In this document: positions 1-52,329 of the stretch, in pieces
How positions within the stretch are numbered: the stretch's first letter is position 1
Layout of the letters: each line of letters begins with the position of its first letter
Sequence record: MT446419.1
Source of the DNA: Escherichia virus TH53
Length of the DNA stretch: 52,329 nucleotides
Direction: 5' to 3' (one strand)
Position numbers and translations under genes: made by a program
Notes under the pieces: model-generated
Seen by the model: only the letters and a program-made list of their open reading frames with translations
What the model was told of the DNA's origin: nothing
Database searches by the model: none

Positions 1-332
1 TCAAATTGTTTCAATATTAATGAGACTAGAATTCGTAACAAAGCTACGAGACTCGAATTGTGGCGATATTATTTTATTTTTGAGGTGGCGGGGAGGGGAA
101 GCCCAACGTCCTATCGGACTTAAAATACGGTCCCTACCCCAACTTTTTCCTACAGCCTATCGGCTTTCAAACAACACCAAGTTAGGCGCTTCGCTTATGG
201 GTCAAGGTCAAAGTCTCCGTGCTGTTGTAACAATGGCACAGGTTTGTGATATTAGTTGGAAGTGAATTGTGTAATGGCTACGCTATTATAATCCGTTTCA
301 GTTAAATCATACACAATCTTGGAGACTTACAA

Positions 333-2273
333 ATGACTACTATCACCACTCAAACTATCAAATCCGTTGTTCCTGCTATCACTGCTCTGGTATACCGTGC
401 CAAAGAGAAACAGAACTATATGCAGCCTCAGACTTGTGCTATTGCTGCCTTAGCCATCTTCAAGATGATGACGTCTTTCACTCGTGATGACGTTGTTCCT
501 GCCATCGCGATGGTTGAGCTGGCTTCTGCTTCTATTGCTGATGCCAACCGTTATAACAACGATTTGAAAGCAATGCACTATGTTGACCCAGCTATCAACC
601 TCATTGGTCTGGCTAAGCACTTTGGCTTCATCACCATGAACGAAGACAAGTCATTCCAACAAACTGATACATGGGTTGAGCTGGTTACAACTAAAGACAC
701 CGCAGTGCCATTCACTGAGCGTGTTACATCTGAATCTCGTCGCAAGCCTTTCGTTAAAGGTGGCAAAGTTAAGCCATCCAAGACTCTGAAAGCTGCAATC
801 GAATTCCTGCAAGATACTGAGTACCATGTGGAGACTGAGATGGTTCGCATCATCCAGTCCATGATTGAGCAACGTACTTATGGTGGCTTGCAGATGCCAG
901 AAGCAATCCAGACTGAACTCCATGTTTGGAACAATGCTGTAGCAATGATGAATCAGGATAAGCTGTATTCTGACTACTTTGCTGATAACCGTGGTCGTCT
1001 GTATCATGTAGCATGTGCTGGTCCTAACCCACAATCCTCTGACTTTGCTCGTTGCTTGTATTCTCACAATGTTGAGAACATCGTTAAAAAGTTTAACGAA
1101 GATGGTTCTACTACCATTGCATACAACATGTTCATGGCTGAGCTGGAAGATATTTCCGGTGGTGAATGGTGCAGTGCTAAGCGTTTAACTTATGTTGCTC
1201 AGAATCCAGCTGGTTCACTTGCTCGCATGATGAACATGCCTAAAGCTGAACGTCCTTCTAAGCCATTCACTTATGTTCGTCTGGCTCTGGATTGGTTCAA
1301 GTTTGAGACTACAGGTGAGTGTGATTCTCGTGTAGGCTTCGGCTTAGATGCTAAATGTTCTGGTACTCAATATCTGGCATTCATTGCTGGTAACATGGAA
1401 ATGGCTCGTGCAACAGGTCTGGTTGATTCTGAGACTAAAGCATCTGACCCATACCAGTTATCTCTTCGTGAACTGTTGAAGTTATTGGACCGTTCTTCAA
1501 TGAAGCCATCTCCTGAAATTATGGATGAATTCTTGAATCCGAAAGCTGGTCGTAAGTTTATCAAAACTCCATACATGGCTATCCAATATGGTGGTGGTAA
1601 AGCTGCATTGACTGGTTCTTCTGACTTCATTAGCTACATGACAGAAGCGCTCCAGATTCCTATGGAGAAAGCTGAGGCATTTGCTGAACTGTGTGTAGAA
1701 GCAATCCATAACGCATTGGGTGCTAAGATTAACATGTTCATTGAGAAGGCTGCTGATGCTGCATACAACCGTTGTGTTGAACTTGGTAAAGAGTACATCA
1801 CATACCGTCACACTGATGGTCAGGTTGTAATGAAGCCTTGCTTCCCATCTCGTGAAATCTGTGAGGCATTCAGCATTCGTGTTGACTCTCAAACTCGTGT
1901 TATCTTTGGCCAGATTCAGGAGAATAAGCCTTGGACCATTCGTGAATCCAATCCAACTAAAGAAGAATTCAAGCGTACTTTCGTTGTTAACTACATTCAA
2001 GGTATTGACGCATTGGTTGCTCGTACTGTTGCAGTTAAGGCTAAAGAAGCTGGTCTTCGTGGCTTCACTTCAATCCACGATTGTTTCCGTTGCTGCTTAG
2101 CTGATGCTCCACGCATGATGGAAGTTATTCGTGCAGCATATGTTGAAATCTTCGTAACCAACAATCAATTCGAGAATCTGTCTAAGCAACTTGGTGGCAT
2201 TCAGATGTATCATGAGAACATCGTAACCGAAGAGCTTCTGATGAGCGAACACGCTTACTACTTCTGTCAATAA
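333..2273 (+). CDS. single-subunit T7-like DNA-dependent RNA polymerase, short 646-aa form
   Basis: Seen: motif B-like RKFIKTPYMAIQYGGGK (T7 RSVTKRSVMTLAYGS) and motif C-like SIHDCFRC (T7 HDSFGT). Inference: about 240 aa shorter than T7 RNAP, so most of the N-terminal domain is absent. Confidence 0.85.
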   Translation: MTTITTQTIKSVVPAITALVYRAKEKQNYMQPQTCAIAALAIFKMMTSFTRDDVVPAIAMVELASASIADANRYNNDLKAMHYVDPAINLIGLAKHFGFITMNEDKSFQQTDTWVELVTTKDTAVPFTERVTSESRRKPFVKGGKVKPSKTLKAAIEFLQDTEYHVETEMVRIIQSMIEQRTYGGLQMPEAIQTELHVWNNAVAMMNQDKLYSDYFADNRGRLYHVACAGPNPQSSDFARCLYSHNVENIVKKFNEDGSTTIAYNMFMAELEDISGGEWCSAKRLTYVAQNPAGSLARMMNMPKAERPSKPFTYVRLALDWFKFETTGECDSRVGFGLDAKCSGTQYLAFIAGNMEMARATGLVDSETKASDPYQLSLRELLKLLDRSSMKPSPEIMDEFLNPKAGRKFIKTPYMAIQYGGGKAALTGSSDFISYMTEALQIPMEKAEAFAELCVEAIHNALGAKINMFIEKAADAAYNRCVELGKEYITYRHTDGQVVMKPCFPSREICEAFSIRVDSQTRVIFGQIQENKPWTIRESNPTKEEFKRTFVVNYIQGIDALVARTVAVKAKEAGLRGFTSIHDCFRCCLADAPRMMEVIRAAYVEIFVTNNQFENLSKQLGGIQMYHENIVTEELLMSEHAYYFCQ

Positions 2274-2313
2274 TATTAATTGGTCAAGGATGACCACAAA
2301 CTTGGAGACTACA

Positions 2314-2514
2314 ATGAATACTCAACAAATCAATCAAATCGAAAACTGTTTCAATCCTCACCACACTTGTAGCATGACTGATTTATCTCGTCCTACAGTG
2401 GAGGAGACTAAAGACTTCTTAGAATTGTTAGCAGAATATAAACAAGAGTCGCATGTATTATTACATTCATTCTTACACAATTCTGGATACTTTGATACAG
2501 AGATACCATTCTAA
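2314..2514 (+). CDS. hypothetical small protein with C-terminus ...GYFDTEIPF
   Basis: ORF in track from 2290; second in-frame ATG at 2314 has GGAG 7 nt upstream. C-terminal FDTEIPF resembles the E. coli SSB tail DFDDDIPF. Confidence 0.45.
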   Translation: MNTQQINQIENCFNPHHTCSMTDLSRPTVEETKDFLELLAEYKQESHVLLHSFLHNSGYFDTEIPF

Positions 2515-2520
2515 TATTGA

Positions 2521-2546
2521 GCCTGTCTTCGGACGGGCTTTTCTTG
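2521..2546 (+). terminator. intrinsic terminator-like hairpin
   Basis: GCCTGTC-TTCG-GACGGGC stem-loop (one G-U pair) followed by TTTTCTTG, directly after the stop at 2514. Confidence 0.5.
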
Positions 2547-2611
2547 TGTTACCACAATTTAATTCCAATATTCAAGCAATATTGCTGCATGTAATATTGT
2601 TTCAATATTCG

Positions 2612-2630
2612 ACATTAGTTGGATGTGAAG
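2612..2630 (+). promoter_or_regulatory. conserved motif ACATTAGTTGGATGTGAAG, candidate phage-RNAP promoter, copy 1
   Basis: One of seven intergenic copies of a roughly 19-nt motif, all on the + strand. Confidence 0.5.
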
Positions 2631-3451
2631 TAACAGAATACGGAGAAGTATTCCGCATGTCATGTTGAAATCATTCTAGAAACATTTCAGCATGTCAACT
2701 AAACATACAGTGTTGTAATGATGTGGCAATCATTGAACTCCCTGTCTTTGGCCGGACAAAGTTCCAACAACCATGTGTGAAGTAGGATTATCATTCGAAA
2801 CTGTTACTTCAATATAGCATGTTCAATTGCGACAATATTGCCCCATCTCCTATTATAAAGGCCCACCCACAAGCCGGGAGATAACTTTGGTAATATTGGA
2901 ACTTTTGGACATGCTTCTTTCTTTCAATCAGAATTCGAAAGGGGAGAAGAAGTCGGACAAAGCCTCTCGTTTTCACGCAGAAGCCGCCCCGATTTTGAGC
3001 AACAAATATTGTGACAATATTGTCGCAGTATGGCATGTAAATATTGCTACAAATTGGCATGTTGGAATGTGGCAGAATTGTTAGAGGACTAATCACCTCG
3101 AAGATACAATCGTCTACCAATCTGGCATGTTAATTTTGTAACAGTATTTGTGCCAATTTCGCATGTAGTATTTAACCCAATATTCTTGCAACCCGCATGA
3201 ATACTGGCTTCCAGCCAAGCGAAGGCTTTATCATCGCATGTAATATTGTGACAATATTGGGATAAAACCCTTTATTTAATTAGTTTTATTATGCTGTACA
3301 TGGTCGGTTTTCCGTACCTGCTTGCTCCAATCTTAATGTGCCAAATACGTTAAGTATGGGAGTAAACCTGTAATTAATGGTGCATGTTTAATTGTGACAA
3401 AATTCGTCTATTTGGCAGATGAGTTAGTTGCAATTAAGCATGTTCATTTAT

Positions 3452-3470
3452 CATTAGTTGCATGTGAATA
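3452..3470 (+). promoter_or_regulatory. variant motif CATTAGTTGCATGTGAA, copy 2
   Basis: Degenerate copy about 190 nt upstream of the first early gene at 3662. Confidence 0.35.
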
Positions 3471-3661
3471 AGACCAAATCTCTGTAAATTCTGCTGAAAT
3501 TGTGTGACAGATTTTAGAGAGATTATGTCTCCAAGCTAATCATTGTAGTTTTTCGGCACTTGCTGTGTCACATACTCCCTACAGCTTTAAGGTGGATTGA
3601 GGTAAGACAAGACCTCCACAATCGTTCTGTAGGGAGTTTTCTTTTAACTTAGGAGAATAAA

Positions 3662-3880
3662 ATGACTCGTTTTAAAGATTTGGAAGACGGTGCAATCTTC
3701 TTTACGCGTGGTGGAGAACACCTGCAAAAAGTTTTGGAAGATGATGTTAATGTAAATGCAGTATTCGTTGGTGATTCTAACATTGGTGTTTTATTAAATG
3801 ACAATGAAAGAACTTTTACTGAGGAGGAGTTTAAAGAAATCTCAGCCTCTGATTTAGTTCAAGAGCCAATTGAAGCCTAA
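3662..3880 (+). CDS. hypothetical protein (early region)
   Basis: ORF with AGGAG 7 nt upstream of ATG. Confidence 0.55.
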   Translation: MTRFKDLEDGAIFFTRGGEHLQKVLEDDVNVNAVFVGDSNIGVLLNDNERTFTEEEFKEISASDLVQEPIEA

Positions 3881-3922
3881 TGTATTGGGGGGGAGTAAAC
3901 CCTCCAAATTTGGAGAGCAGAA

Positions 3923-4159
3923 ATGAATTACGCGCTGTATCAATACATCAATCGTGACGGTGTTGTTTCACATGCTTTGGTTAATACTGTAACTAAGGCA
4001 GTAATGTTAGCTGACACGGTGATTTATGGAGAAAGAGGGCGTCTGGTTTGGAAACCTGCTGCACACCCTGAATATGTTTGGCTTGCAATTCAAAATGACA
4101 AGCACAACAAAATTGTGGCAATGGCTACTCACCCTCATTTCATTAAAGCACGAGGTTAA
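3923..4159 (+). CDS. hypothetical protein
   Basis: ORF with GGAGAG RBS; tightly packed with neighbours. Confidence 0.55.
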   Translation: MNYALYQYINRDGVVSHALVNTVTKAVMLADTVIYGERGRLVWKPAAHPEYVWLAIQNDKHNKIVAMATHPHFIKARG

Positions 4160-4161
4160 TC

Positions 4162-4350
4162 ATGGACTTCATCGTCTACTTTAAGTTAAATGGTGTAGAG
4201 CAACGTTTGTACTTCAATTCTTTACTTCGTTTGCAACAGTGGGCGGAGAAGTTTGTTGGGTATGACTTTGAATACATCAACGCATGTACACCTGACGAAC
4301 ATGAGGAAATCGTGTTCAGTTCATTAAGCCAAATTCTGGAGGCTAAATGA
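4162..4350 (+). CDS. hypothetical protein
   Basis: ORF starting 3 nt after the upstream stop; GAGG RBS. Confidence 0.5.
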   Translation: MDFIVYFKLNGVEQRLYFNSLLRLQQWAEKFVGYDFEYINACTPDEHEEIVFSSLSQILEAK

Positions 4351-5354: not shown

Positions 5355-5615
5355 ATGGCTACTAGAACAGGCATGATGATTGTCCCAAGCCGTAATAACT
5401 CTTTAAGCGGCTTTACACCATATAAAATCTACGAAGTGATTTCTGGCACTGGTGAAGCAAACCTGTCAGAAGTTGCTTTGAAGTTGGGCCGTATGGTCCA
5501 CTCCGAAATCTCCTGTAACGTAGTTGATGATGAAGGTAAAATCCGTTTTGTAACAATGGATTTCTTTCGTGAATTTAACCTCAAATCTGAATTAGGAGTT
5601 CTGTACCATGAATGA
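5355..5615 (+). CDS. hypothetical protein
   Basis: AGGAG RBS 6 nt upstream of ATG. Confidence 0.55.
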   Translation: MATRTGMMIVPSRNNSLSGFTPYKIYEVISGTGEANLSEVALKLGRMVHSEISCNVVDDEGKIRFVTMDFFREFNLKSELGVLYHE

Positions 5616-11200: not shown

Positions 11201-11324
11201 TTCTGGCCACTTAGGGAAGAAAGGCATTATACACTTATCGCCAAATGGGTGTCAAGCATTTTCTTCATTTATTTTAATTTATTCTTATTATTCTTTTTGT
11301 TTGGAATATTGGAATAATTCTGAA

Positions 11325-11343
11325 ACATTAGTTGGAATTGAAG
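11325..11343 (+). promoter_or_regulatory. motif ACATTAGTTGGAATTGAAG, copy 5
   Basis: Tandem with copy 4, about 140 nt downstream, separated by an AT-rich stretch. Confidence 0.5.
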
Positions 11344-11979
11344 AAACAACATCAGATAATAACTTTGTAACTCGGTAGACCGTTGCGGCCGCATCGTGTG
11401 AGAATGTTCGACTCATTCTACAAAGTTATTTTCGATGGAATGTTTCCATCATATACATTTATCTTTTAACATAGGCCATAGGGCCGGAATACTTCTTCGC
11501 AGAAAAGCTATTCACTTGTTATAGGCGATGTATTGGGATGAATTGGAACTAAATAAGCAAGCTGTTAGGGCTGAATAATTAGAGGGTCATGCCTCATGCT
11601 TATGTTAGTCATTCGAAAATAGGTTTGTGCCACAAGCTGCTGGTGCTCTGAGGAAGTCGGACAAACAGGGCTTAGAGTGGCATAATCCGCACAAAACCGC
11701 GCCACCAGCTATGCCAAAGCAGGTGGATTGGGTGAATGTATTGGGAAGGGTTGCAAAGCCTCTGTGACACGCCTGAGCCACAAGGCGACGACACTCATGT
11801 GATTAGCGTATCGCACCCTAACGGGAGCAACCCTTCACCAATGCAGTTATCCAGAATTGACACAAACGGTAGGCAGTGGCCCGATTTTCGGCCTTCCTGC
11901 GCTACTCTGTGGCCTGTTTCCTGGGCCAAAAGATGAGAAGAGAAGTCACAAACATCGAATCGAAAATTGGAGAGTTCCT

Positions 11980-12270
11980 ATGATTCGCAAACATTCTATC
12001 CGGGTCATTAAGGCCCGCAATATTCACACAGGAGAGATGGAAGCATTTGCTTTCTTGGGTGGAAGGTTTTATTTATTTGGTTGGGAAGGAAGCAATTCAA
12101 AGTTTGCATTCTTTATGAATATGTATTCGATTAAAGAGTTGTTAAACAATGCGACCTACAACCCATCTTTCATGGAATATTGTTTCGGCAAGCCAGTCGA
12201 ACATCTTCTATCCAAATCCTTCATTTACAGCTGGACAACAGACCAGCCAATGTACGGAGTTCCATTTTGA
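11980..12270 (+). CDS. hypothetical protein
   Basis: ATG with GGAGAG 5 nt upstream; the track ORF extends to 11857 but that start lacks an RBS. Confidence 0.45.
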   Translation: MIRKHSIRVIKARNIHTGEMEAFAFLGGRFYLFGWEGSNSKFAFFMNMYSIKELLNNATYNPSFMEYCFGKPVEHLLSKSFIYSWTTDQPMYGVPF

Positions 12271-52152: not shown

Positions 52153-52241
52153 CGATTATATGTGAGAAGAGATTCGATGCGTTAGCGTCGTTTCTCTTTG
52201 AGCTAGAATAAAACAAGTAAATTAAATATTTATTTATTCCC

Positions 52242-52258
52242 AATATTGCTACAATATT
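52242..52258. repeat. terminal copy of the AATATTG-N3-CAATATT palindrome
   Basis: Perfect palindrome AATATTG-CTA-CAATATT, same family as the 2587-3475 array. Confidence 0.6.
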
Positions 52259-52329
52259 AAGAGTAATATTAGGAATGCGTAAAGTTAAAACCAAATGGTA
52301 CATGGTCGGTCAGCTGTATCTCGCCGAAA

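Follow-up and report, generated by a model that had tools for sequence, protein, structure and literature searches.

The DNA analysed here (the window) is a 52,329-nucleotide stretch of Escherichia virus TH53 (MT446419.1), a Carltongylesvirus of the phiEcoM-GJ1 type (Chaseviridae). Chaseviridae are myoviruses that combine a T7-like RNA polymerase (RNAP) with terminal repeats, which the ICTV profile puts at ~3 kb (PMC12842549). The RNAP of the window is 646 aa long, matches PF00940 and has its nearest relatives outside the family among the Xp10/T7-like podovirus RNAPs. The replisome is also T7-like, with a Toprim + DnaB fusion and a family A polymerase. Between the terminator of the RNAP operon and the first early gene lies a block of ~1 kb without a conserved ORF (2515–3660; 2.2% of the window length). 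The initial annotation had placed this block after the RNAP gene. It is indeed downstream, but a 74-aa ORF (2290–2514) intervenes. Only two ORFs of at least 60 aa occur in the block, 2809–3120 on the − strand and 2827–3084 on the + strand. Both use a TTG start and neither has a counterpart by position, strand or length in the seven relatives compared, so that the stretch is ORF-free in the useful sense, as first described. No tRNAs were found in the window. Rfam returned no family at E ≤ 1 for positions 1–4200 except one chance miRNA match, and nothing at gathering score for the whole window. Pfam and PHROG searches assigned no function to ten early ORFs; the most conserved early protein (ORF 5355–5615) matched only a generic SH3-like model.

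The block is filled by a dense array of short repeats. It contains three perfect copies of AATATTG-N3-CAATATT, at least eight degenerate palindromes, and GCATG[TA] boxes with a marked strand bias (13 forward, 1 reverse; p = 0.002). The pattern AATATTGNNNCAATATT was scanned at ≤2 mismatches and compared with 100 shuffles. Ten matches were obtained in the window versus 0.51 expected, and 0/100 shuffles reached ten. The hairpin-capable array first noticed by eye of a model is thus real, and was understated: 12 of the 21 + strand copies of GCATGT fall in 2587–3465 (binomial p = 3e-15), and the block holds 12 of 48 copies of AATATT (p = 4e-10) and 15 of 159 copies of AATATTG at ≤1 mismatch (p = 3e-6). 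Perfect palindromes start at 2593, 3005, 3242 and 52242. The last of these and the copy at 2–18, which carries two mismatches, confirm the further copies reported at both window ends. The statement that palindromes are mostly preceded by GCATGT is accurate for 2593, 3242 and the degenerate copies 2823, 3040, 3064, 3132 and 3388, but not for 2567, 3005, 52242 and 2–18. The palindrome/GCATGT unit is confined to 2567–3475 and the junction, and is absent from the rest of the genome. The array carries no annotation in the sequence records or literature searched. No chasevirus transcript-end, transcript or footprint data were found in the literature searched.

Table 1. Elements of the post-RNAP block and of the terminal repeat edges (positions in the window; a slash within a sequence marks the repeat edge).
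Element	Position	Strand	Remarks
Three tandem palindromic units (2–18, 28–45, 54–70)	2–70	+	Alternate with AAYGAGACT (19–27, 46–53), period ~26 nt
Outer (left) DTR edge signal	71–120	+	T-run 71–81, purine 82–101 (GAGGTGGCGGGGAGGGGAAG), CCTATCG/GAC
M1 promoter-like TATTAGTTGGAAGTGAA	250–266	+	Upstream of RNAP gene
Intrinsic-terminator-like hairpin + T-run	2519–2540	+	Ends RNAP/ORF2 unit, opens block
Four AATATT hexamers, spacing 11/15/11 nt	2567–2609	+	Palindrome 2567–2583 (6/7 pairs); GCATGT 2587 + perfect palindrome 2593–2609
M1 promoter-like CATTAGTTGGATGTGAA	2613–2629	+	3 nt past palindrome; 'putative phage promoter 1' in GJ1 record
Two GCATGT boxes (2655, 2690) around inverted repeat 2658–2697	2655–2695	+	
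GCATGT + degenerate palindrome TCAATTGCGACAATATT	2817–2839	+	
Sole inverted unit, GCATGTCCAAAAGTTCCAATATT on − strand	2892–2914	−	Faces unit 2817 across invariant element 2848–2879
Inner (right) DTR edge signal	2915–2961	+	T-rich 2915–2926, purine 2941–2952 (GGGGAGAAGAAG), GTC/GGAC; annotated ends 2949–2959
Phased (C)AATATTG-like boxes every 11–13 nt	3005–3085	+	Perfect 3005–3021, overlapping 3016–3032, GCATGT units 3033, 3057
GCATGT units 3125, 3161; GCATGA 3195	3125–3200	+	
Main module	3236–3318	+	GCATGT + perfect palindrome 3236–3258, conserved GGGA, AT/T-rich ~40 nt, box G ACATGGTCGGTTTTCCGTACC 3298–3318
GCATGT + degenerate unit TTAATTGTGACAAAATT	3382–3404	+	
GCATGT 3438, then M1 promoter-like motif CATTAGTTGCATGTGAA 3452–3468	3438–3468	+	~200 nt before first early ORF
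Second module	52207–52320	+	AT-rich, perfect palindrome 52242–52258, 44-nt spacer, box G ACATGGTCGGTCAGCTGTATC 52300–52320

The block occupies the same position in eight genomes from ~6 genera of Cleopatravirinae. A motif search across related genomes, suggested earlier as a check, found the array conserved and syntenic in seven relatives (phiEcoM-GJ1, 4HA13, PP101, Y2, Faunus, phiA050 and Myduc), and blastn recovers the non-coding block in other genera at 68–76% identity. Cross-genus comparison identifies TTGTGACA as the invariant core of the units. As a description of the repeated unit, GCATGT-N5/6-TGTGACA-AWATT is more apt than a strict palindrome. The spacing of the units is irregular except in 3005–3085 and 2–70. 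The existence of arrays beyond the chaseviruses was rejected on the basis of an IMG/VR scan, which returned arrays in chasevirus contigs only and isolated single copies elsewhere. Likenesses to the half-sites of the lac operator and of CRP (TGTGA) and to the Tus/Ter cores were considered and dropped for want of the symmetric partner or of the spacing.

The initial annotation likened the palindromes to the hairpin promoters of phage N4. Early promoters of the N4 virion RNAP are hairpins with a 5–7 bp stem and a 3-nt loop. The four perfect copies share this geometry (7+3+7) near a genome end, two of the four (3005 and 3242, loop TGA) have a central loop purine, and the surrounding DNA is AT-rich and easily melted. 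Folding as single-stranded DNA (ssDNA) is, however, limited to these four, at −2.9 to −3.1 kcal/mol; the degenerate units 2823, 3132 and 3388 are conserved, yet reach only 0 to −0.6 kcal/mol. Arm changes across genera are mainly disruptive. One-sided changes break pairing in 74 cases and leave a wobble in 21, and two-sided changes are compensatory in 12 cases versus 11 that are not, so that compensation is not in excess. The best copy, that of the main module, retains only one of its arms in Y2, PP101 and Myduc, with TTGTGACA kept. Arm–arm pairing is not the conserved feature, and selection for hairpins was rejected on both the folding energies and the arm changes. The stems, moreover, are nearly pure A/T, and the polymerase is a small T7/Xp10-like enzyme encoded behind its own promoter region. 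There is no virion RNAP of N4 size, because no ORF in the genome exceeds 1241 aa. An N4-type system would be expected to fold at every copy, to keep its stem pairing and to include a giant gp50-type RNAP, and none of the three was found. That the units are N4-type hairpins with a 7-bp stem and 3-nt loop, read by the phage RNAP on a single-stranded template, is extremely improbable.

A better promoter candidate than the palindromes is a separate motif, M1 (CATTAGTTGGAWKTGAA), which has eight dispersed intergenic copies, all on the + strand. T7-type promoters are conserved asymmetric motifs of ~20 bp, scattered upstream of gene clusters and oriented along transcription; M1 has these properties, whereas the palindrome/GCATGT unit does not. 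The M1 copy at 3452–3468 is listed as 'putative phage promoter 2' in the GJ1 record. Five copies lie outside the junction region (7353, 11326, 13264, 21327 and 41211), with no palindrome adjoining. The GCATGT units were rejected as degenerate M1 sites: all are negative with the M1 weight matrix, on which true sites score 26.6–33. A sigma-70 promoter scan of positions 1–4200 gave 10 sites versus 11.3 expected, and hence no enrichment. According to the ICTV profile, the promoters of Chaseviridae have not been identified (PMC12842549).

The edges of the direct terminal repeat (DTR) were transferred to the TH53 window from the ends annotated or sequenced in six relatives. The repeat measures ~2.84 kb, and its inner edge, at 2954/2955, falls in the middle of the array. 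This position of the array on the inner DTR edge is new here. The annotated edges of Myduc (3202), PM1 and Y2 map to 2954/2955, those of Mangalitsa (3234) and 4HA13 (3120) to 2949 and ~2959, respectively, and the first base of the Faunus record to 2951. The outer edge maps to ~116/117, within annotated ends that span 114–120 (Y2, PM1, Mangalitsa, 4HA13 and Myduc); for Mangalitsa and 4HA13, the starts defined by PhageTerm fall on position 120. In the records of Y2 and PM1 the repeat is present twice, once per end (2608 and 2665 bp, respectively), with no mismatch between the copies. Terminal repeats have been demonstrated experimentally for PYps23T (PMC8762354). The authors of that study give a different repeat of 2339 bp (PMC8762354), the limits of which fall in two M1 motifs.

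Arrays are found around either edge of the repeat, and the order of elements is the same at both: palindrome, T-run, purine run and TC/GGAC. Units lie 35–55 bp from the inner edge on both sides, and the units at 2–70 lie 45–115 bp upstream of the outer edge, where GCATGT boxes are missing. Repeated boxes flanking an end-forming site are expected of terminase recognition regions (pac/cos), and this is the arrangement found. Three to four units of the 2–70 type occur in flopper, GJ1, PYps23T and Mangalitsa. PM1 has such palindromes with ACGGCTC spacers instead, and the region upstream of the outer edge in Y2 contains GATTCG repeats without AATATT palindromes. The second module, ~200 bp upstream of the outer edge, is kept in GJ1, flopper, PYps23T, Mangalitsa, 4HA13, Faunus and phiA050. 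Perfect palindromes adjoin two of the three most AT-rich 40-mers of the window, 52207–52246 ranking second and 3253–3292 third. Box G, which includes TGGTC in its conserved sequence, comes 42–44 nt after the palindrome in both modules.

The fallback proposed in the initial annotation, that the palindromes serve as operators of a dimeric regulator or as a packaging or replication site, fits an array that spans the inner DTR edge and has copies flanking the outer one. Our best reading, a tentative one that stops somewhat short of probable, is that the units are boxes in the concatemer-junction region on which a protein docks as duplex DNA, and that they serve to form the ends and to start replication. 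In its favour are the position of the arrays at both edges, the shared order of elements, the conservation across genera, the confinement to this region and the finding that arm pairing is not conserved. A DNA-binding protein with sequence specificity, probably a dimer, would recognize the palindromes, each of them a pair of CAATATTG-type half boxes that lie one turn of the helix from each other around the TTGTGACA core. With the oriented GCATGT boxes added, the palindromes would constitute the cis-acting control region of the junction. The phased boxes (~11 nt in 3005–3085; ~26 nt in 2–70) could load several dimers on one helix face, and the loaded complex may position a terminase or nuclease for two specific cuts and duplication of the repeat. 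The two modules of the form perfect palindrome, AT-rich DNA and ACATGGTCGG (3236–3318; 52207–52320) are putative unwinding or replication starts for the T7-type replisome. Such a role would parallel the promoter-plus-AT-rich origins of T7, and two of the features expected of a T7-type origin, an AT-rich stretch directly downstream and a T7-type replisome, are present; the element upstream of that stretch would be a putative phage promoter. Repeated sites beside an AT-rich region, as in iteron-type origins, are found too, but without a recognized cognate initiator gene, the neighbouring ORFs having no function assigned, and without a set of DnaA boxes: the latter form no cluster and show no enrichment, with one 9-mer at ≤1 mismatch in the block (3463, − strand). 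The cumulative GC skew is lowest at ~3 kb, which is weak evidence because negative 1-kb windows also occur elsewhere. Most units (3005–3404) are placed beyond the inner edge, in unique DNA to its right. They count against a pure termination-cut signal, because such a signal would need none there. Further points against the junction reading are the lack of GCATGT boxes at the outer edge, the GATTCG repeats of Y2 and the different repeat given for PYps23T. The Pfam and PHROG searches of the ten early ORFs yielded no candidate for the binding protein.

Several known systems resemble this arrangement. The T7 concatemer junction consists of a terminal repeat flanked by short-repeat arrays (SRL/SRR), with the promoter-plus-AT-rich origins phiOL and phiOR on either side; the primary origin, phi1.1A/B and an AT-rich region, directly follows gene 1. 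Shared with T7 are the direct terminal repeat, the short-repeat arrays beside both edges, an AT-rich module beyond either edge, non-coding control DNA that follows directly on the RNAP gene, the type of replisome and the orientation of all elements along transcription. The repeat here, however, is 2.84 kb long and includes the RNAP gene, whereas that of T7 is 160 bp and non-coding, and the units here are dyad-symmetric and distinct from the candidate promoter M1. The lambda cosB R sites and the hexamer clusters of P1 pac are terminase recognition arrays that flank the cut. Like these, the array offers short repeated boxes within ~50–400 bp of a sequence-specific cut, on both sides at the inner edge. 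It differs in having two cut sites 2.8 kb apart with a shared signal and many more boxes, spread over ~900 bp; terminase binding is putative, and no small subunit was recognized. Lambda ori has dyad-symmetric iterons beside an AT-rich region, and phi29 p6 forms nucleoprotein complexes at the genome ends. Helically phased, partly dyad-symmetric boxes by AT-rich DNA near genome ends are common to these and the array, but no initiator or p6-like gene was recognized and the spacing outside 3005–3085 and 2–70 is irregular. A further difference from T7 is that the chasevirus is a myovirus whose terminase is described as T1-like (PMC8762354).

Other functions have to be weighed against that of junction boxes. 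The palindromes could be operators at which an early phage or host dimer switches the two M1 promoters of the block and read-through from the RNAP operon, and thereby times the early genes. Dyads of 17 bp with arms of 7 bp, as seen here, are typical of operators. The palindrome at 2593–2609 ends 3 nt before M1 2613, the unit at 3382–3404 is 48 nt before M1 3452, and the location, past the terminator of the RNAP operon and ahead of the first early gene, is suitable. Control of this kind is nevertheless rather unlikely, given that the five M1 copies outside the junction lack an adjoining palindrome, most units are distant from an M1 motif, the copies gather at the two DTR edges, the upstream flank of the outer edge among them, and the early ORFs that were scanned revealed no HTH or RHH protein. 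It is distinctly unlikely that the units are a second class of duplex phage-RNAP promoters, like phiOL/phiOR and phi1.1A/B of T7. The same judgement applies to the layout this would imply, with GCATGT and the 17-mer at −23 to −1 and a start at GGGA, and, no more favourably, to transcripts that prime replication in the adjoining AT-rich DNA and cross the repeat edges. The T7 promoter reads TAATA-CGACTCAC-TATA-GGGA, and the main copy, AATAT-TGTGACA-ATATT-GGGA, resembles it in its succession of AT-rich part, core, AT-rich part and GGGA. The GGGA is kept in 6/8 genomes, the units are strongly oriented, the two modules flank the repeat as do phiOR and phiOL, and a T7-like replisome is accompanied by no annotated initiator. 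On the other side, units are missing elsewhere in the genome, where M1 is the dispersed motif, and are negative on the M1 weight matrix. No start base is conserved after the other units (C, G, A, G, G, T, C, G), dyad symmetry is unusual in single-subunit RNAP promoters, and one RNAP would require two unrelated specificities.

Transcription could also act by fixing the ends themselves. The T7-like RNAP would start transcription from the palindrome modules beside the junction, and the G-rich purine tracts 5′ of both edges (82–101; 2941–2952) would trap an R-loop primer, much as the T7-like mitochondrial RNAP has its R-loop primer trapped at CSBII. DNA synthesis from both points would then duplicate the 2.8-kb repeat and define both termini. 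That genome ends are set by such transcription-primed replication, and not by terminase sequence recognition, is highly improbable. A quite improbable proposal is that the block works at the RNA level: M1 2613 would give rise to a structured leader or non-coding RNA of some length, and the repeats would have their function in this transcript (processing, stability or protein titration). M1 2613 is directed into the block, a stem–loop at 2735–2764 has three pairs changed on both sides and is 100% paired in six sequences, the hairpin at 3219–3237 has four different stems around a conserved loop, and a 64-nt hairpin with a U-run lies at 3574–3646. The palindromes, however, show no pairing selection, Rfam gave no family, the same palindromes precede the outer DTR edge in another transcription context, and covarying hairpins are equally expected of ssDNA intermediates at an origin. 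In T5, the injection stop signal (iss) occupies an extensive untranslated stretch of the long terminal repeat in which repeats and palindromes abound (Davison, bioRxiv 10.1101/866236). A similar checkpoint, halting entry until the RNAP of the leading 2.8-kb segment is made, is very improbable for the block. The two regions agree in being conserved among relatives, in their composition and in their place at the inner limit of a long repeat with a first-expressed gene, and the terminator at 2519–2540 and M1 2613 would suit such a stop. Ordered DnaA boxes are absent from the block, two-thirds of the array lies beyond the repeat, and the block spans the repeat edge whereas the T5 iss lies within its repeat. 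Chaseviridae are not known to transfer their DNA in two steps, and the copies at the outer edge are left unexplained.

The making of exact kilobase-long phage terminal repeats is poorly understood. Regarded as junction boxes, the array on the inner DTR edge and the matching outer signal supply candidate end-forming (pac-like) signals and replication starts, while M1 is a concrete candidate for the phage promoter. With a compact conserved signal at both edges, the question becomes directly testable in an E. coli phage. Chaseviruses are of use in biocontrol, and knowledge of true termini and cis elements would therefore help genome engineering and correct assembly.

The pattern extends across the family, which speaks for the junction reading: the Aeromonas phage ZPAH14, which belongs to another subfamily, has a 3373-bp repeat that also ends within the post-RNAP block. 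Exact k-mer counts revealed no dispersed promoter in ZPAH14, and a dispersed array motif in that subfamily was rejected, GTATGAGAC being confined to the block and found nowhere else in its genome. Five + strand copies of GTATGAGAC flank the ZPAH14 repeat, and the purine tract 5′ of its edge is GAGTGGGGTGGGGGAGGG.

The dense palindrome array described by the initial annotation is real. At two mismatches or fewer, AATATTG-N3-CAATATT occurs ten times against 0.51 expected. Twelve of the 21 plus-strand copies of GCATGT fall within 2.2% of the window (p = 3e-15). In the non-coding block that follows the RNA polymerase (RNAP) gene, GCATG[TA] boxes number 13 forward vs 1 reverse, and AATATT is enriched 12-fold. 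This block (2515–3660) had been called ORF-free, and in a comparison of eight genomes none of its ORFs keeps position, strand or length; it has no Rfam match. The window is the complete genome of a phiEcoM-GJ1-like myovirus (Chaseviridae, Cleopatravirinae, Carltongylesvirus), and ST32, EcoM1 and SA91KD share 93–96% identity with its first 6 kb. The repeats are kept in relatives: blastn detects the block in other genera (4HA13, PP101/PM1, Faunus and phiA050; 68–76% identity), and the eight-genome alignment holds 9–14 syntenic GCATG[TA] boxes per genome. In IMG/VR, arrays of the perfect 17-mer are found only in chasevirus contigs. Searches of database annotations and literature found neither the array nor the shared edge signal described.

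Cis-acting repeat arrays at phage termini and origins are a known kind, to which this array belongs. What is new is the arrangement: the array sits across the inner edge of a direct terminal repeat (DTR) of kilobase length that carries the RNAP gene, and this placement relative to the DTR edges is the main new fact. The edges were transferred from the ends of relatives. PhageTerm-annotated repeats are listed in the table; the Y2 (2608 bp) and PM1 (2665 bp) records carry the repeat at both ends with no mismatch, and the first base of the Faunus record falls at the inner edge. The inner edge falls mid-array, with units 2567–2914 inside the repeat and units 3005–3404 outside. Palindromes also stand directly upstream of the outer edge: three tandem units (2–18, 28–45 and 54–70) interleaved with AAYGAGACT at a period of ~26 nt. 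Three to four tandem units occupy this place in flopper, GJ1, PYps23T and Mangalitsa, and PM1 has identical palindromes with another spacer. Both edges share one order of elements: palindromic unit, T-rich run, purine run (GGGGAGGGGAAG or GGGGAGAAGAAG) and TC^GGAC. In Aeromonas phage ZPAH14, outside the subfamily, a 3373-bp repeat terminates within the post-RNAP non-coding block. A purine run precedes this end, and five plus-strand copies of GTATGAGAC flank it, confined to that spot in the genome. The ZPAH14 purine tract is GAGTGGGGTGGGGGAGGG, directly before record position 54057.

Coordinates of array, promoter-like and repeat-edge features (window positions unless a phage is named; ^ marks the cut)
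Feature	Sequence	Position	Remark
M1 motif	TCTGAAACATTAGTTGGAWKTGAAG	250, 2613, 3452, 7353, 11326, 13264, 21327, 41211	+ strand; weight matrix
Perfect palindrome copies	AATATTG-N3-CAATATT	2593, 3005, 3242, 52242	
GCATGT without palindrome		2655, 2690, 3195, 3438, 3460	
Palindrome without GCATGT		2567, 3005, 52242, three units at 2–70	
Outer DTR edge	CCTATCG^GAC TTAAAATAC	~116/117 (range 114–120)	transferred from relatives
Inner DTR edge	GAAGTC^GGACAAAG	~2954/2955 (range 2949–2959)	transferred from relatives
G-rich purine tracts		82–101, 2941–2952	immediately 5' of both DTR edges
Direct terminal repeats		Mangalitsa 1–3234; 4HA13 1–3120; Myduc 1–3202	PhageTerm-annotated
Hairpin stems across genera	GCGA/TCGC, GACAGT/ACTGTC, CCTGT/ACAGG, GCAGG/CCTGC, GTAT/ATAC	3219–3237	

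The authors of PYps23T reported a discordant 2339-bp terminal repeat (PMC8762354). In the record (positions 1 and 2339), its limits lie inside two copies of the promoter-like motif M1, ATTAGTTGGA^CGTGAATT and ATTAGTTGGA^TGTGAAGT, and do not agree with the edges in six other relatives. Either biology or a PCR/recombination effect may account for this. In Myduc, the stretch immediately upstream of the inner DTR edge is directly duplicated (~218 bp; 2765–3202). The duplication spans the purine run as well as the GCATGT unit and CCTATTATAAAG..., and its second copy stops precisely where the repeat is annotated to end. The 13-mer GAAGTCGGACAAA, which spans the inner cut, has exactly two copies, 2949–2961 and 11653–11665. 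The latter is conserved in SA91KD and lies within a second ORF-poor, GC-rich region (~11350–11980) that comes after the genome's most AT-rich 40-mer (11258–11297) and the M1 copy at 11326. A further origin or a structured RNA may lie here.

The unit is bipartite and oriented: GCATGT, then 5–6 nt, TGTGACA and AWATT. Both parts are also found singly (table). What stays invariant from genus to genus is TTGTGACA. At 3242, the best copy, the left arm is lost in Y2 and the right arm in both PP101 and Myduc. When ten sites are pooled over eight genomes, departures from consensus on one side comprise 74 pair-breaking and 21 wobble changes, close to our estimate for unselected change; two-sided changes divide into 12 compensatory and 11 not. 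As ssDNA, perfect copies reach only about -3 kcal/mol on folding, and conserved degenerate copies 0 to -0.6 kcal/mol. These arm-change counts, the lost arms and the weak folding mean that conservation acts on the sequence of the unit; the hairpin is not conserved.

The initial annotation favoured hairpin promoters of the kind read by phage N4 virion RNAP. This reading now ranks lowest. The polymerase and its candidate promoter do not resemble the N4 system: the RNAP is Xp10/T7-like, no ORF exceeds 1241 aa, and M1 is a different, dispersed motif. The 646-aa RNAP shares 99.8% identity with the EcoM1 enzyme and matches a single family, PF00940 (6e-18), with a bare match to T7 RNAP structures (E = 0.003). 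Its closest relatives outside the family are Xp10/T7-like podovirus enzymes (20–24% identity). The ICTV credits Chaseviridae with long terminal repeats of ~3 kb and a T7-like RNAP, and says of the promoters of this RNAP that they 'have not yet been identified' (PMC12842549). M1 is the best candidate for this promoter. Its eight copies are all intergenic and score 26.6–33 bits vs at most 15 bits for all else. Several stand immediately 3' of terminators in the SA91KD annotation, purine-rich sequence follows M1, and the GJ1 and SA91KD records call it a 'putative phage promoter'. M1 inside the block is conserved across genera. GCATGT units score negatively with the M1 matrix and were rejected as M1-type promoters.

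Placed at the repeat edges, conserved, oriented and confined to this region, with no selection on the hairpin, the palindromes may be duplex protein-binding boxes of a concatemer-junction control region, the reading preferred here. We infer this binding, and packaging and replication roles for the array, in keeping with the operator, packaging or replication site first offered as a fallback. The boxes would flag both repeat edges as places where ends are formed and the repeat is duplicated, and two AT-rich modules would serve as unwinding or replication start points. Perfect palindromes 3242 and 52242 each adjoin one of the genome's three most AT-rich 40-mers, and box G, ACATGGTCGGT, follows each after 42–44 nt. 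The former module is ~290 bp into the unique region past the inner edge and the latter ~200 bp before the outer edge; they lie on opposite outer sides of the repeat and therefore bracket it in a concatemer. The phage encodes a T7-like replisome, including a Toprim-DnaB fusion and a family A polymerase. In T7, promoter-plus-AT-rich origins (phiOL and phiOR) flank the terminal repeat, and the primary origin lies immediately after the RNAP gene. The layout here is similar in the modules either side of the repeat and the block after the RNAP gene. In a rival reading, the units would be a second class of promoters like phiOL/phiOR. The palindromes may instead be an early transcription operator set. 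Several points weaken the junction reading: the inner edge has most of the units on its right, GCATGT is missing from the outer edge, and the edges are those of relatives. A search for a protein binding the palindromes, including Pfam/PHROGs on early ORFs, likewise found none. The array might also act at the RNA level, or as an entry stop like the T5 iss (bioRxiv 10.1101/866236), against which stands the lack of a DnaA-box cluster in the block. Under the junction reading, the array and edge signals provide testable signals for the making of long exact terminal repeats.

The main copy, 3242, has a conserved GGGA directly after it and, before it, a hairpin (3219–3237) with conserved loop rGCwTWATC and a stem that varies in four ways by genus. 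A G.T pair in 4HA13 is consistent with plus-strand folding. A stem-loop at 2735–2764 (GAACT-ccc-TGTC...GACA-a-AGTTC) has an inner helix of TGTC/GACA, TGAG/CTCA or TCAG/CTGA by genus; in a small set of 6 sequences, pairing is 100%, with both sides altered at 3 pairs. The element TCCTATTATAAAGGCCCACCCACAAGCCGGGA (2848–2879) is near-invariant in eight genomes, with one apparent compensatory change in Myduc (GGC...GCC to GCC...GGC). The block of the distant Vibrio phage VPs20 holds two copies of CCTATTAT (~2733–2760 and ~3014–3040), each followed by a GGTCG-NNN-CGACC hairpin. Directly ahead of the first early gene's ribosome-binding site, a 64-nt hairpin and then a U-run occupy 3574–3646; the folding energy of the 126-nt region is -38.5 kcal/mol (z = -3.6). 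This hairpin, which could be a terminator, an attenuator or an RNase III-type processing site, is conserved in part in GJ1 and 4HA13; in PP101, Y2 and Faunus it is far shorter.
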